Below are positions 4,748-10,157 of a stretch of 32,000 nucleotides of DNA, piece by piece; the first letter of the stretch is position 1; each line of letters begins with the position of its first letter. The notes beneath the pieces are model-generated. The model made no database searches, was not told the origin of the DNA, and saw nothing but the letters and a program-made list of their open reading frames with translations. A program made the translations under genes and the position numbers. The stretch is taken from contig JASBSB010000006.1 in assembly GCA_030149205.1 (NCBI GenBank), positions 120,001-152,000 of the forward strand, written 5' to 3'. This stretch comes from Candidatus Heimdallarchaeota archaeon. GTDB lineage: Archaea; Asgardarchaeota; Heimdallarchaeia; Heimdallarchaeales; Kariarchaeaceae.

Positions 4748-5449
4748 TCAATAATATATTCTTAATTCAGGAATGTAGGTAGATAAGATAAGATAAAACC
4801 CAGATATTAATACAATAATTCCAAGAACCGTTTTTATCTTTTCTTGATTTTTTGAAATTTTAGCAGCAAAAGTTTGTTTAAACTCTGGAACCAGTAAAAC
4901 TATTAAAAGAAAGGGAAATGCAGCCCCTAAGCTGAATCCAGAGTATCCTATAATTTTGTCAGACAATCCAAGATTTAGGAGTTGTCCCCAAGAAACAAAA
5001 AAATAAGATATAGCGCATGGAGCTGCTATTATGGTATATAATAATCCCACAACAAACCCTAGAATTAGTAAATTACCTGAAACTCGCTTAGAGTATAATA
5101 GGTCATTCAAAAATTGAGGTAGTTGAATGGAGTACAGAATCTTTGGAGTATATACTAACATTATTCCTGCAAGGATCAATAAAGCTCCTTGGACAGTTGC
5201 AAATGTAACGTAATTTTGTAAAAAAAAACCAATCAAAGATAGAAATGAATTAACAAGTAGCCCTATTGTAGAATAAACTATCATAATCCCAGCAGTTAGA
5301 CCAATCAGGGAAAGTAAAAGTTTGCTTTGTGATGTTTCATTTTCAGCTGCGATTAATGCAAAATAAGTTGGCATTAATGGAAACAGACATGGACTCAATG
5401 ATGTCAGAATTCCCAAAATGAACTGAAAAAAGAAAACATCTAAATTCAT
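4748..5449 (-). CDS. ccdA: CcdA / DsbD transmembrane-domain protein (cytochrome c biogenesis / transmembrane electron transport)
   Basis: About 6 TM segments with the paired Cys motifs SLSPCLFPLMP and AAPCA. Confidence 0.88.
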   Translation of the reverse strand: MNLDVFFFQFILGILTSLSPCLFPLMPTYFALIAAENETSQSKLLLSLIGLTAGIMIVYSTIGLLVNSFLSLIGFFLQNYVTFATVQGALLILAGIMLVYTPKILYSIQLPQFLNDLLYSKRVSGNLLILGFVVGLLYTIIAAPCAISYFFVSWGQLLNLGLSDKIIGYSGFSLGAAFPFLLIVLLVPEFKQTFAAKISKNQEKIKTVLGIIVLISGFYLILSTYIPELRIYY

Positions 5450-5518: not shown

Positions 5519-5947
5519 CTACTGCTCAGACATTAGGCTACTGATTATCTTCTCTAATCGAACCATGAGGGGTTGAACCTTTGATTCAAAATGAATTGAA
5601 ATTTGGTTTTGAACAGCTTCAGAGGTGATTCTTTCTTCTTTTTGTTTTTCTTCCTCTAGTGTCTGTACCCTTGCTGTTAATCCCTTAATCTTATCGTCAT
5701 ACTCGGAAAGTTTCCCTTGAAGGGCACTAGATTGCCCTATTTCATCTGTGATCTCAGTTACTGCCAACCGCTGTGATAATTCATCATCATGTACATATCC
5801 TTTTTCCAAATATATTTGAATTGAGCGATTGATTAGTTCTGTCAATGTCGATCCCATTTTTTGTGCATTAAGTTGCAATTTGTCTTTTAATTTCTTGTCC
5901 AACCAGAAAGTTGTTGCGACTCTATCTTTTCTCCGAGTTGAGGGCAC
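5519..5947 (-). CDS. Ribbon-helix-helix (CopG/MetJ-like) DNA-binding protein with C-terminal coiled coil
   Basis: RVATTFWLD (beta strand) - KKLKDKLQLNAQKMG - STLTELINRSIQIYL pattern; heptad-like LQGKLSEYDDKIKGLTARVQTLEEEK. Confidence 0.7.
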   Translation of the reverse strand: MPSTRRKDRVATTFWLDKKLKDKLQLNAQKMGSTLTELINRSIQIYLEKGYVHDDELSQRLAVTEITDEIGQSSALQGKLSEYDDKIKGLTARVQTLEEEKQKEERITSEAVQNQISIHFESKVQPLMVRLEKIISSLMSEQ

Positions 5948-6013: not shown

Positions 6014-7633
6014 TTAATATGCGGTTGAAAGGTGATCATTCATCATCAGATGTTTAAACAATTCATCATAGATTTCAACTAATGTAAGTTGAGAGATCTC
6101 CTGCTCAAACTTCATTTGTGTAGGAGTTTCAGTGTCCTTAAAAAAGGTTAGAGGATATATCATGACCTTGTACAGAATTTTAAAAGGGAGTATCAGAAAA
6201 TCAATGGTTGCCTTATACAGCACCTTGGTACTCTTTTTGCTGACTTGCCAAATCCTTGTTGGCATTCCATCAAGCTGCTTTGGTTTGTTTTTAAATTCAA
6301 TGATTTTATCAAATGAATGATTCAACTGATTCCCTATTTCTTTGTATCTCATTAATGAATATTCCAGCACTGGTCGATTTTTCAAGTTTACGAATTTTAT
6401 TACAAGGAACTTATAACTAACCAAGGCATACTGATAATACACGTAAAGTAAAATCAAGGGGATAAGAAACAAACCATTAAAAAAGTTCACAATCCTTTTT
6501 TTCCTTTTCTCCCAATTCGACTTAAAGGCGTAATGATCCTTCATAAATTGTCTCACTCCAAATGCAAGTCCAGTACTAATTTTCCCAAGATCCAAGTCAT
6601 TGACAAACTGTGAATATTTTTCTTCTTCATGGATTATAATTTTTAGGACTGTTGAAACCATTAGATTGTTAATCAGATCTTCATCCTCTTGGCCAGCAGT
6701 AATTTTGAAACTGAGATTCATCAAGTTAAATTTTGCTTCTTCAAGTGTTAGATGGTATCGATTTGCAAATTCCTTTAGAGCTTTGTTTCTCCTCCAAAAT
6801 TTTATAGTAAATTCGTTTTGGTAAATCTGCAAAGCAAATTCCCTGGCTTTCTCTTCCCTGATGTTTCTAAAATCTAGATTATTAAGACTTTCTTGAGACC
6901 CTTGCAAAATTTCGGATATTAGTTTCTTTGCTCGATCAGGGACTTTGCTTTCCCCAGTTCCAAGTAGATTTACAACTCGTTCGGAGATTTGATTTAACTG
7001 TTCTGACATCTCCTGCTTAAAATCCTCTAATGATGTCTGATCAACAGGTGGAAAATCAAGCACCAAGAAACCCGCGAACCCTCCATAATAAGGAATTGCC
7101 ATTAGTGATTCTAAGGTATTAAAAAATACCGCACCTCTATAATTGCCCATTTTCAGGCATCTTTCCTTGGCATTTTGAAAAACAAAAAAAGGTGGCCCAA
7201 AAATTCCAGCAACCGTTGCTAACACCATTGAGGTTGAACTGAAAATGTAGATCAGAACAGGTCCTAAATCACCGAATTGCCTCTGACTAAAATAAGCAAT
7301 CAGTCCGGCAGATAAAGCAACTGCTGATACTGCGTTATCTATGGTCTGACCAACCCCCTTTCTTAGAGCAAAGCTCTCACTCACCTCTTCTACCTTAGTG
7401 GATATATCCATTAATTGTGAGATGGTTTCTTCTGCTTCAATTCTAACTGGGTCTGTCATCAATCTGCTTAGGGCAAAAATATATGATCGGTTATCCTCGA
7501 GAAACGGCATTGCCTCTTGTAATTTTTGAGGAAAGATAAAATCGTAAATGTTCAACAGGATTTGAGCAGATATAGTTAACAGGAAAATGATAGGGGTGAG
7601 AATAAATATTATAAATGCTCGAATTTTACCCAC
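6014..7633 (-). CDS. Uncharacterised 539-aa multi-pass membrane protein, paralog A
   Basis: Long ORF with GTG start and hydrophobic segments near aa 5-30, 100-150, 165-192, 385-410 and 475-497; colinear with 7847..9466. Confidence 0.85.
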   Translation of the reverse strand: MGKIRAFIIFILTPIIFLLTISAQILLNIYDFIFPQKLQEAMPFLEDNRSYIFALSRLMTDPVRIEAEETISQLMDISTKVEEVSESFALRKGVGQTIDNAVSAVALSAGLIAYFSQRQFGDLGPVLIYIFSSTSMVLATVAGIFGPPFFVFQNAKERCLKMGNYRGAVFFNTLESLMAIPYYGGFAGFLVLDFPPVDQTSLEDFKQEMSEQLNQISERVVNLLGTGESKVPDRAKKLISEILQGSQESLNNLDFRNIREEKAREFALQIYQNEFTIKFWRRNKALKEFANRYHLTLEEAKFNLMNLSFKITAGQEDEDLINNLMVSTVLKIIIHEEEKYSQFVNDLDLGKISTGLAFGVRQFMKDHYAFKSNWEKRKKRIVNFFNGLFLIPLILLYVYYQYALVSYKFLVIKFVNLKNRPVLEYSLMRYKEIGNQLNHSFDKIIEFKNKPKQLDGMPTRIWQVSKKSTKVLYKATIDFLILPFKILYKVMIYPLTFFKDTETPTQMKFEQEISQLTLVEIYDELFKHLMMNDHLSTAY

Positions 7634-7679
7634 AAATTAAACTTGGTTTACTTATTTATAAGTTTGTCTTGTGGAGCAC
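7634..7679 (-). promoter_or_regulatory. Putative promoter (TTATAAAT TATA box, leaderless-type) of paralog A
   Basis: Minus-strand TTATAAAT at about 7654-7661, 21-28 nt upstream of the GTG; the sequence is conserved upstream of paralog B. Confidence 0.65.
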
Positions 7680-7846
7680 CTTAGAGTAGCATAGTTAGGT
7701 AGAGGCGGACTACACATAAATCAAATTTTGAGATTACATAGAATTGTTTCAGCTACAAAACTGTAATAGGAAAATACAAAGATATCTTTGTGCTTTAATT
7801 CAATAATTGATTCTGAGTTTGATGTAGTTTTATCTTTTGAATTAGG

Positions 7847-9466
7847 CTAATAAGCTGTAGAAATATGATCACTCATCATTAACCGTTTGAATAACTCATC
7901 ATATATTTCAACAAGGGTTAACTGAGAGATCTCCTGTTCAAATTTTGTTCGAGTAGGTATTTCCGACTCCCTGAACAGCGATAAAGGAAATATCAAAATC
8001 TTGTATAATATTTTGAATGGAAGAACAAGAAATTCTAATACTGCCTTGATCAATATTTTGCTGCCTCTCTTGGTCCCATTCCAGAGTTTCGAGGACAAAT
8101 CATCGAATTGTTTTGGGGTATTTTTGATTTCAATTAGCCTATCAAATGTCCTGTCAAGCTGAATCCCAATTTCTGTGTATCTCATTTTGGAATATTCAAC
8201 CACAGGCCTGTTTTTTAAGTTAACAAACTTCATGACAAGGAATTTGTAACTTATTAATGCGTACTGATAGTAGGCATTAATCAGGATATAAGGAAGTACA
8301 AACAGACCATAGAAAAAGTTAAGAATCCTTGATTTCCTGTTCTTCCATTTAGATTGAAAGGCATAATGATCCTTCATAAACTGTCTGACTCCAAAAGCCA
8401 ATCCAGTACTGATTTTTCCAAGTTCTAAATCATCAACCAACTCTGAGTATTTTTGTTCCTCTTGGATGATTATTTTCAGGACAGCTGTTACCATTAAATT
8501 GTTGATTAGATCCTCGTCCTCTTGACCAGCAAGAATTTTAAAACTTAGGTTCATCAAATTATACTTTGCCTCTTCAAGGGTCAGATGGTATCGATTGGCA
8601 AATTCCTCAAGAGCTTTCTTTCTTTTCCAAAATTTTAAGGTAAATTCATTCTGGTAAATTTGAAGGGCAAACTCCCTAGCTTTTTCTTCCCTAATATTTC
8701 TAAAATCTATTTTGTTAAGGCTCTCTTGAGATTCGTCCAGGATCTCATTAATCAATCTTTTTGCCCTATCTGGAATTCTGCTTTCACCTGTCCCAAGTAG
8801 ATTCACAATTCGATCTGAAATTTCGTCTAACTGTTCTGAAATTTCCAGCTTAAATTCTTCTAATGAGGGCTGATCCACAGGTGGAAGATCTAGCACCAAA
8901 AACCCCGCAGCTCCACCATAAAAAGGTATTGCCATTAGAGATTCCAAGGTATTAAAGAGTACAGCCCCTCTATAGTTCCCGAATTTTAAACACCGTTCCT
9001 TAGCGTCTTTAAACACAAAATAAGGTGGCCCAAATATTCCCGCCAAGGTTGCTAACACCATTGAAGTAGAACTAAAAATATAGATCAATACTGGGCCAAA
9101 GTCACCGAATTGACTCTGACTAAAATAGGCAATCAATCCTGCGGATAGTGCCACTGCAGATAATGCATTGTCTATTGTTTGACCAACTCCCTTTCTAAGT
9201 GCAAAGCTTTCACCAATATCTTCTACTTTCGTAGAAATATCCACAAGTTGTGAGATAGTTTCTTCAGCTTCGATCCTAACTGGGTCTGTCATCAATCTAC
9301 TTAGAGCAAAAATAAAGGTGCGATTAACCTCCAGAAGTGGGATCGCTTCCTGTAGTTTAACTGGGAATAGAAAATCAAAGATATTTAATATAACCTGAGC
9401 AGTCATAGCTACAAGGAATACAACAGGGGTGAGAAATAGGATGCCAAGGGTTCGGATTTTACCCAC
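7847..9466 (-). CDS. Uncharacterised 539-aa multi-pass membrane protein, paralog B
   Basis: Same length as paralog A with no indels; 75 of the first 100 aa are identical by manual count. Confidence 0.85.
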   Translation of the reverse strand: MGKIRTLGILFLTPVVFLVAMTAQVILNIFDFLFPVKLQEAIPLLEVNRTFIFALSRLMTDPVRIEAEETISQLVDISTKVEDIGESFALRKGVGQTIDNALSAVALSAGLIAYFSQSQFGDFGPVLIYIFSSTSMVLATLAGIFGPPYFVFKDAKERCLKFGNYRGAVLFNTLESLMAIPFYGGAAGFLVLDLPPVDQPSLEEFKLEISEQLDEISDRIVNLLGTGESRIPDRAKRLINEILDESQESLNKIDFRNIREEKAREFALQIYQNEFTLKFWKRKKALEEFANRYHLTLEEAKYNLMNLSFKILAGQEDEDLINNLMVTAVLKIIIQEEQKYSELVDDLELGKISTGLAFGVRQFMKDHYAFQSKWKNRKSRILNFFYGLFVLPYILINAYYQYALISYKFLVMKFVNLKNRPVVEYSKMRYTEIGIQLDRTFDRLIEIKNTPKQFDDLSSKLWNGTKRGSKILIKAVLEFLVLPFKILYKILIFPLSLFRESEIPTRTKFEQEISQLTLVEIYDELFKRLMMSDHISTAY

Positions 9467-9512
9467 AAACTAAACAGGGTACGCTTATTTATAAATTTGT
9501 CCTGTGGTGTAC
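9467..9512 (-). promoter_or_regulatory. Putative promoter (TTATAAAT TATA box) of paralog B
   Basis: Same motif at the same spacing from the GTG as in paralog A. Confidence 0.65.
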
Positions 9513-9620: not shown

Positions 9621-10157
9621 TCAATTTTTTTGGACTACCTTGTTTTCACTTGCAAATCTTATGTACCACCAATAAAGACTAACACCCAAAAGAACGAGAA
9701 TTATCAAGAATTGAGGAAGGGCACTTAGAGATTTGGTTTCTCGATATCCTCCAGATTGCATAATCATCATAACCAACAAAATCTGTAAAAACACAGCTAC
9801 AGACACAGATGCAGCAGATTTAATTTTATTATGTTTCTCATTCAAAATCTGAACAGTGTAATACAGGGCATAATAAGAAGGGATGTTTAGGATCATGACA
9901 ATCCACCAAGGTTCCATCTTCAATTGAAATGTATTATAAATTGGTGCTGGTTGTAATATTTGATAAATTGTCCAAGGATAGTAGTAAGACACTTCAATTA
10001 TATTTCCATTATTAGTTGTTGCTATAATTGGAACAAAAACAATTACTGTGGATACCACTGCTGTGAGGATATACCGGATGAGTCTGTCATTTCTGGATGC
10101 AAACGGTGTTGCTTCTTGAACTGTTGAAGCCAAAGCTTGTAATGACACTAATAACAC
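9621..10157 (-). CDS. Hypothetical membrane protein (about 4 TM)
   Basis: 178 aa with four hydrophobic stretches and no recognised motif. Confidence 0.65.
   Translation of the reverse strand: MLLVSLQALASTVQEATPFASRNDRLIRYILTAVVSTVIVFVPIIATTNNGNIIEVSYYYPWTIYQILQPAPIYNTFQLKMEPWWIVMILNIPSYYALYYTVQILNEKHNKIKSAASVSVAVFLQILLVMMIMQSGGYRETKSLSALPQFLIILVLLGVSLYWWYIRFASENKVVQKN

Follow-up and report, generated by a model that had tools for sequence, protein, structure and literature searches.

A local tandem duplicate of an orphan membrane protein gene restricted to the Heimdallarchaeales

The window considered here is a stretch of 32,000 nucleotides from a Candidatus Heimdallarchaeota archaeon of the family Kariarchaeaceae (contig JASBSB010000006.1, positions 120,001 to 152,000). 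It contains a tandem pair of genes, in the following denoted copy A (downstream) and copy B (upstream), each of which encodes a membrane protein of 539 aa. We are confident that the two genes belong to a real orphan family that is restricted to the order Heimdallarchaeales, that they arose by a local duplication, and that both copies have been maintained. The overall reading that we favor, and consider on balance probable, combines this local duplicate of an orphan gene with a product that would hold a helical domain at the membrane. The elements of the locus are as follows.

6014-7633, minus strand: copy A, downstream paralogue (539 aa, GTG start, from the list of open reading frames, ORFs)
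7634-7678, minus strand: promoter block of copy A (positions -45 to -1), TATA box at 7654-7661
7679-7846, minus strand: diverged spacer between copy B and the copy A promoter, inside the 1833-bp duplicated unit, alignability lost
7847-9466, minus strand: copy B, upstream paralogue (539 aa, GTG start, from the same list), an all-helical membrane protein of the orphan family that scores 873 bits against the family profile
9467-9511, minus strand: promoter block of copy B (positions -45 to -1), TATA box TTATAAAT at 9487-9494, preceded by the A-rich GACAAA that resembles a B recognition element (BRE)

Sequence divergence and promoters of the gene pair

Copies A and B are located on the same strand, have the same length and are offset by 1833 bp. 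The proteins are identical at 413 of 539 positions (77%, with 91% positives and no gaps in BLASTP), and the genes share 75% of their nucleotides, a degree of divergence that excludes an assembly artefact. The nucleotide differences are distributed over first, second and third codon positions in the ratio 101/40/261. Nei-Gojobori estimates are 0.13 for nonsynonymous divergence (dN) and approximately 2.6 for synonymous divergence (dS, saturated), resulting in a dN/dS of about 0.05. The ratio is at most 0.08 in all three segments with estimable dS (codons 1-380), including a value of 0.08 across codons 1-100; past codon 380 synonymous sites are saturated. The alignment of the two copies contains no long identical tract of the kind expected from recent gene conversion. 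Of the 58 sites with a conservation of 80% or more across the family, 56 are the same in both copies, and the differences between A and B are concentrated in the hydrophobic segments TM1, TM4 and TM5 and in the loop between the latter two (36-52% of positions), as compared to only 5-8% in the TM2-TM3 hairpin (segments numbered from the N-terminus, see below). As judged from these substitution patterns, both copies are under strong purifying selection since their duplication, which makes it very probable that both are expressed and functional.

In favor of the GTG starts, homologues have their first residues at the same MG or VG position, residues P35, E40 and P43 are conserved, and dN/dS is low in the first 100 codons. 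Automatic gene calls for the pair, with 519 aa (P0001) and 498 aa (P0002), are too short at the N-terminus. We note that the shortened calls drop the conserved first hydrophobic helix of both copies.

Directly upstream of the starts, the copies are identical at 35 of 45 positions (-45 to -1), as compared to 6 of 30 positions between -75 and -46. Beyond -45 identity is at background level, save for a short patch at -90 to -76 (10/15). The sequence TTATAAAT, at positions -28 to -21, falls within the conserved 45-nt block of both copies. Since synonymous sites are saturated and the block is nonetheless conserved, the block itself is under selection. In archaea, this spacing between BRE/TATA elements and the start codon fits a leaderless or near-leaderless mRNA, and the arrangement implies that the blocks act as BRE/TATA promoters giving rise to transcripts with no or a very short leader.

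A preliminary description of the locus, made from the sequence alone, had reported two colinear 539-aa GTG-start genes at an offset of 1833 bp, in agreement with the ORF list. It had put the protein identity at about 75% over the first 100 aa, close to the full-length value, and had listed four long invariant blocks, all of which are found in both copies. Its further statements, namely that about 46 nt of upstream sequence including the TATA box are conserved, that many differences look synonymous, that both copies are under purifying selection and that an assembly artefact is unlikely, are borne out by the values above.

An orphan family confined to one order

The preliminary description had recognised no family, and the searches lead to the same result. 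Neither Pfam nor NCBIfam contains a family that matches at its curated cut-off, and no weak match recurs among the 49 members scanned. The same scan lists no GTPase family, the domain that would be expected of a membrane remodeller of the dynamin, atlastin or mitofusin type; Dynamin_M appears only below threshold in two of the 49 members (E 0.018). The reticulon (PF02453) and TB2-DP1-HVA22 (PF03134) families are not listed at E ≤1 for the window copies or at E ≤0.1 for the 49 members. PADLOC and PHROGs return no family at E ≤0.01 for five family members, and PDB sequences return no match in either single-sequence or profile searches. The ESM Atlas yields no convincing match, with a score of 0.76 for the whole protein and no usable match for residues 140-375.

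Several candidate identities were considered and rejected. The best match in Pfam and NCBIfam, GatB_Yqey (residues 306-387, 19.3 bits versus a cut-off of 27, E 1e-3), is below threshold and restricted, within the 49 members, to the two window copies; we regard it as a chance match. A terpene cyclase is suggested by weak rows of the structural alignment together with an acidic GQEDEDL motif, which is not conserved in Heimdallarchaeaceae. The diterpenoid cyclases of Asgard archaea constitute a different, recognisable family (bioRxiv 10.1101/2025.02.07.637177). Internal repeats are likewise not evident: segments TM4 and TM5 are only weakly similar (hhalign probability 29%, E 6e-4), and all other pairs remain at or below 8%.

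Homologues of the pair are found exclusively within the same order. A word-indexed search of 5.8 billion clusters identified eight other clusters of approximately 540 aa with 39-54% identity. When 1.84 billion representatives were searched exhaustively with a profile, 26 sequences were identified, all of the same family; as none of these exceeds 676 aa, there is no fused form among them. The nearest database entries, such as UJG41091.1 (UniRef100_A0A9Y1BLK4, 'hypothetical protein' of Candidatus Heimdallarchaeum aukensis) and proteins from metagenome-assembled genomes of other Heimdallarchaeales (for example, RMG36708.1), are full-length homologues with 22-54% identity that share the architecture and the invariant residues of copies A and B. 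None of these entries has been named, assigned to a Pfam domain or functionally described, and all members in the databases are annotated as 'hypothetical' or 'uncharacterized'. Literature searches on Heimdallarchaeia and reticulons, and on Kariarchaeaceae, returned no title or abstract that deals with the family.

In its own genome, copies A and B are the only members detected by a profile search. In a set of 400 genomes from the phylum, 44 of 46 other Heimdallarchaeales genomes encode the family, the closed genome of Ca. Heimdallarchaeum aukensis (3,081,793 bp) being one of them. None of the 354 remaining Asgard genomes does, 22 of which are from a sister family in the same class. The examined Asgard genomes without the family include those of the Hodarchaeales. 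With respect to individual families of the order, the gene occurs in 10 of 11 genomes of the Kariarchaeaceae (f1, one genome of which is named Ca. Kariarchaeota), in 30 of 31 genomes of Ca. Heimdallarchaeaceae (f3), and in 1 of 1 and 3 of 3 genomes of two further families (f2 and f4, respectively). This distribution, which the preliminary description had proposed to examine, indicates that the family was probably present in the common ancestor of the Heimdallarchaeales. The novelty of the family lies in its lack of a detectable relative and not in a demonstrated new mechanism. About half of the genes in Asgard genomes have no known function, and lineage-specific orphan membrane proteins are common in these genomes.

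History of the duplication

A maximum-likelihood tree of 58 family members places copies A and B as sisters (support 100) whose shared stem is long (0.55) and whose terminal branches are short and of similar length (0.17 and 0.13). Their closest neighbor in the tree is the single copy of a genome of the same genus (G055). A second carrier in this genus (G053) contains two fragments at contig ends; the fragments overlap by 361 nt with 98.9% identity, and the genome is therefore counted as holding one gene. The tree topology follows the taxonomy, with vertical inheritance within the order. The phylogeny identifies the window pair as a lineage-specific tandem duplicate of one gene, and the duplication, while local, is by its synonymous divergence old enough to have saturated synonymous sites.

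Whether the gene is usually paired had been raised as a question in the preliminary description; it is not, since a single match per genome prevails in f1, f2 and f4, three of the four families. Given the sister relationship of the two copies within one genus, the single-copy genomes of the same genus, and the predominance of single matches in f1, f2 and f4, copies A and B do not behave as an obligate pair, and the comparison indicates that a paralogous partner is not required for the protein to work and that duplicates are repeatedly retained. For example, Heimdallarchaeaceae harbor 2-4 paralogues per genome, some of them in tandem, which form two old paralogue clades; by their position in the tree, these duplications are independent of the window pair. 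One genus of this family has its own tandem pair (locus L048, 2402-6242; L039, 5055-8887; L036, 8194-11992). We note that the upstream copy of this genus has 669-679 aa: an N-terminal extension of about 100 aa repeats the module of TM1 plus PPK, and additional residues are inserted between TM2 and TM3. In the downstream copy, the N-terminal tail is acidic and of low complexity; Lys-rich N-terminal tails are found in other paralogues.

Architecture, conservation and structure model

Family-averaged hydropathy delineates five hydrophobic segments (TM1 to TM5) at residues 6-32, 97-117, 123-146, 381-402 and 470-497. Conservation is lowest in the hydrophobic helices, which have no family-wide polar residues: none of the 98 positions in TM1, TM2, TM4 and TM5 is conserved to at least 90%, and 32 of the 34 sites that reach this level are located in soluble stretches. 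The conserved soluble stretches comprise residues 33-96, 147-376 and 498-539, of which the juxtamembrane part 147-200 is the best conserved (mean 0.60, 8 sites ≥90%). Invariant in 49 members are F145, G146, P147, Y165, E175, P181, P195, P196, F205, R264, F266, F289, G359 and D366. A conserved cysteine, histidine or serine, or a known catalytic motif, was not found among the family members. With strong conservation placed in the soluble stretches and not in the hydrophobic helices, a membrane-anchored helical domain is more plausible than a channel.

The C-terminal part contains two segments of about 30 aa (379-411 and 466-498) with central conserved prolines (P392 and P483, respectively). The charged residues of 470-489 are on one helical face, and the loop between TM4 and TM5 is variable, with a median length of 63 aa and 21% K/R. 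The positive-inside rule is indecisive with respect to topology (K/R density of 0.16 on one side versus 0.19 on the other). Heimdallarchaeaceae paralogues carry Lys-rich or Glu-rich N-terminal tails of 33-60 aa, which should be cytoplasmic. Two layouts are possible: five true membrane spans that leave the N-terminus inside and place the main domain outside, or C-terminal segments that are wedge-like or in-plane, with everything on the cytoplasmic face.

The AlphaFold2 model of copy B (m4bb7d0ec5920, based on an alignment of 49 sequences) is all-helical and consists of 18 helices, with a mean predicted local distance difference test (pLDDT) of 68 and a predicted TM-score (pTM) of 0.59; a shallower alignment of 9 sequences resulted in a pLDDT of 52. 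In the model, helix 62-87, located in the interval between TM1 and TM2, packs against helices 199-252, which follow TM3. TM2 and TM3 would therefore constitute a hairpin, with both stretches on the same side of the membrane.

A Foldseek comparison of the monomer with PDB, proposed in the preliminary description, matched no characterised fold. Searches of PDB and of viral models (BFVD) gave nothing better than E 0.05, with TM-scores of about 0.1; transporters (MFS, MOP/MurJ and MATE) are listed with E 0.14-1.5, TM-scores of about 0.1 and a root-mean-square deviation (rmsd) of about 30 Å. An exhaustive structural alignment returns only three-helix bundles for residues 61-253, with Z-scores up to 9.7, which is chance level for helical proteins. 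For example, helices 62-87, 199-226 and 233-252 superpose on spectrin-like and other three-helix bundles (PDB 3fb2, 2odv and 3edv; Z 8.7-9.4, rmsd 2.5-3.0 Å over 83-85 residues). These Z-scores are expected for unrelated helical bundles, however, the identity is 10-15%, and in our protein the three helices are from non-contiguous stretches that are split by a membrane hairpin. On the evidence of the model, the fold is best described as unmatched rather than proven new.

Genomic context

The neighbors of the pair in the window are housekeeping genes. Downstream are located a gene of 142 aa with likeness to ribbon-helix-helix (RHH) proteins, a CcdA-like gene and MsrA; upstream are located an orphan membrane ORF of 178 aa, followed by DUF1028 and an alcohol dehydrogenase. 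Three of these neighbors are listed below.

4748-5449, minus strand: CcdA-like thiol-disulfide transporter gene (Pfam DsbD_TM, E 1e-13, two PC motifs)
5519-5947, minus strand: ORF of 142 aa between copy A and the CcdA-like gene, with a weak RHH_1 N-terminus (E 0.016) and a coiled-coil-like tail
9621-10157, minus strand: multi-span membrane ORF of 178 aa directly upstream of copy B, whose only Pfam match is a weak DUF5767 (E 0.004)

In each of the nine Kariarchaeaceae genomes whose flanking sequence is long enough, the CcdA-like gene adjoins the family gene (tblastn; loci L004, L005, L007-L011 and L015, plus the window). It is co-directional and downstream in the genus of the window, and divergent and upstream in the clade whose proteins have 650 aa; the adjacency has outlasted this change in orientation. 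At the family loci of the other three Heimdallarchaeales families, a CcdA-like gene was not found. No cysteine is conserved in the family, so that a redox link is not apparent, and we regard the CcdA-like gene as genomic context and as a candidate partner only. Contig 3 of genome G048 (L042 and L011) contains 90 scattered single N bases in 20 kb, which break naive ORF calling; the family gene is still one open frame.

Orthologues of the 142-aa ORF (66-68% identical) are located about 5 kb from the family gene in genomes of the same genus, and the locus in the window has therefore been rearranged. The 178-aa ORF has no homologue in the related loci compared. In Heimdallarchaeaceae, the family gene is accompanied by a type II DNA methyltransferase, an EamA transporter and an ABC permease. 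The methyltransferase (650-700 aa) is encoded upstream of the family gene in three genera (L032, 6025-8124; L036, 12079-14034; L044, 11101-13047; and others) and consists of Eco57I, N6_Mtase and TaqI_C domains, with MTase_II as best PADLOC match (E 9e-82) and no nuclease domain seen. A link to defence by way of this methyltransferase was rejected, as the arrangement is not operonic in two closed genomes and the family itself has no PADLOC match. No partner gene is conserved across the Heimdallarchaeales at the loci compared.

Proposed role and alternative explanations

The duplicated unit of 1833 bp comprised the gene together with its own BRE/TATA promoter. In the reading that we favor, the hydrophobic helices would serve as anchors and keep the conserved helical domain at one membrane face. 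The protein would then function as a scaffold or adaptor that is anchored in the membrane and probably associates with itself, and the products of A and B would since the duplication be either interchangeable or part of mixed assemblies. We put forward this functional part only tentatively, with clearly less confidence than the duplication itself. Several observations weigh against the proposal. The AlphaFold2 model is of moderate quality only, with residues 86-111, 189-199 and 450-464 below a pLDDT of 50. TM4 and TM5 are each bordered by K/R-rich sequence at either end. One type of Heimdallarchaeaceae paralogue possesses one additional TM1-like module, in which PPK follows a hydrophobic segment; this module would invert a simple layout of five spans. 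Likewise, the invariant charged residues E175, R264 and D366, together with the juxtamembrane region 145-200 (FGP...G.YR...E...P...PP), also fit a catalytic or gating site.

The latter observation leads to the alternative that the protein is a channel, a transporter or a membrane enzyme with an active site at the membrane interface, formed by FGPP...GNYRGA...E175...PPVD (145-200). The strong conservation of 147-200, with the invariant residues E175 and Y165 and with Gly/Pro helix breakers, would be in line with such a function, and several neighbors in Heimdallarchaeaceae are transporters (EamA, ABC permease and MFS). The hydrophobic helices, however, are the least conserved and without family-wide polar residues; conserved His, Cys or Ser residues and known catalytic motifs are missing, and transporter matches in Foldseek have TM-scores of about 0.1. 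We therefore rate this explanation as unlikely, albeit the least unlikely of the alternatives. With respect to the preliminary description, which had named membrane-shaping, pore-forming and channel proteins as possible relatives, the fold searches gave generic helical bundles only, and the pattern of conservation counts against a channel or transporter.

A second alternative, also from the preliminary description, is that a hetero-oligomeric membrane complex contains A and B as its two subunits, the pair being kept since both are needed. Purifying selection on both copies and the conserved promoters are consistent with this explanation, as are the clustering of A/B differences in TM1, TM4, the TM4-5 loop and TM5 next to a near-identical TM2-TM3 hairpin, and the 2-4 paralogues, some in tandem, that Heimdallarchaeaceae keep independently. 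The claim is nevertheless not supported by the phylogeny, in which the copies are sisters, genomes of the same genus are single-copy, and f1, f2 and f4 mostly have one match. In addition, the terminal branches are near-symmetric, and the copies differ at merely 2 of the 58 family-conserved sites. We consider a complex that requires both copies to be quite improbable.

Slightly less probable still is a membrane-curving or membrane-organising protein similar to reticulons or REEPs (DP1/Yop1), in which the C-terminal hydrophobic segments would insert as wedges from one side. The hallmark of these proteins are two hydrophobic hairpins of about 30-35 aa with both ends in the cytoplasm, plus a C-terminal amphipathic helix. 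The likeness is one of architecture and is confined to the last ~170 residues of our protein, that is, the long segments 379-411 and 466-498 with P392 and P483 and K/R flanks on both sides, the basic loop of about 60 aa, and a conserved C-terminal helix; the weak similarity of the TM4 and TM5 segments and the one-sided charges of 470-489 point in the same direction. In contrast, reticulons and REEPs lack the three further hydrophobic helices and the conserved helical domain of about 290 residues, so that the N-terminal two thirds have no counterpart, and there is no reticulon or TB2/DP1 sequence match at E ≤1. AlphaFold2 gives each of the segments as one long straight helix, and the soluble domain is better conserved than the putative wedges.

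Equally speculative is a membrane organiser specific to the Heimdallarchaeales with a fold not seen before, in which proline-kinked wedges and amphipathic helices would hold a cytoplasmic helical platform that shapes or compartmentalises the membrane or docks the Asgard cytoskeleton; the repeated duplications would then give rise to mixed assemblies.

A pore-forming toxin, defence or mobile-element protein, suggested by a Gly/Ala/Ser-rich hairpin with amphipathic helices as in colicin, Bcl-2 and the heads of alpha-pore-forming toxins (alpha-PFTs) and by the methyltransferase gene upstream in three Heimdallarchaeaceae genera, is highly improbable, as only residues 121-191, a long, partly hydrophobic and small-residue-rich hairpin, align to the tripartite alpha-PFT heads AhlB, SmhB and YaxA (Z 4.6-5.9, chance level for helical hairpins; Foldseek E ~1), PADLOC and PHROGs give no match, the methyltransferase is 0.8-2 kb away in two closed genomes (with opposite-strand ORFs in between in one), and the family, as opposed to a soluble toxin, is a resident membrane protein with an N-terminal anchor and more hydrophobic segments, near-universal and vertically inherited like a core gene in the order, with a tree that follows taxonomy and a housekeeping context in the window.

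Returning to the orphan family as such, its absence from Hodarchaeales and the lack of any match outside the family imply that it bears on the biology of the Heimdallarchaeales and not directly on eukaryogenesis. A gene that is near-universal in one order, yet absent elsewhere, is a marker of lineage-specific cell biology. Being strongly constrained, membrane-bound and shared by Kariarchaeaceae and Heimdallarchaeaceae, with no relative in sequence or fold, the family constitutes, as soon as these archaea or a heterologous host become tractable, a reasonable target for structure determination.

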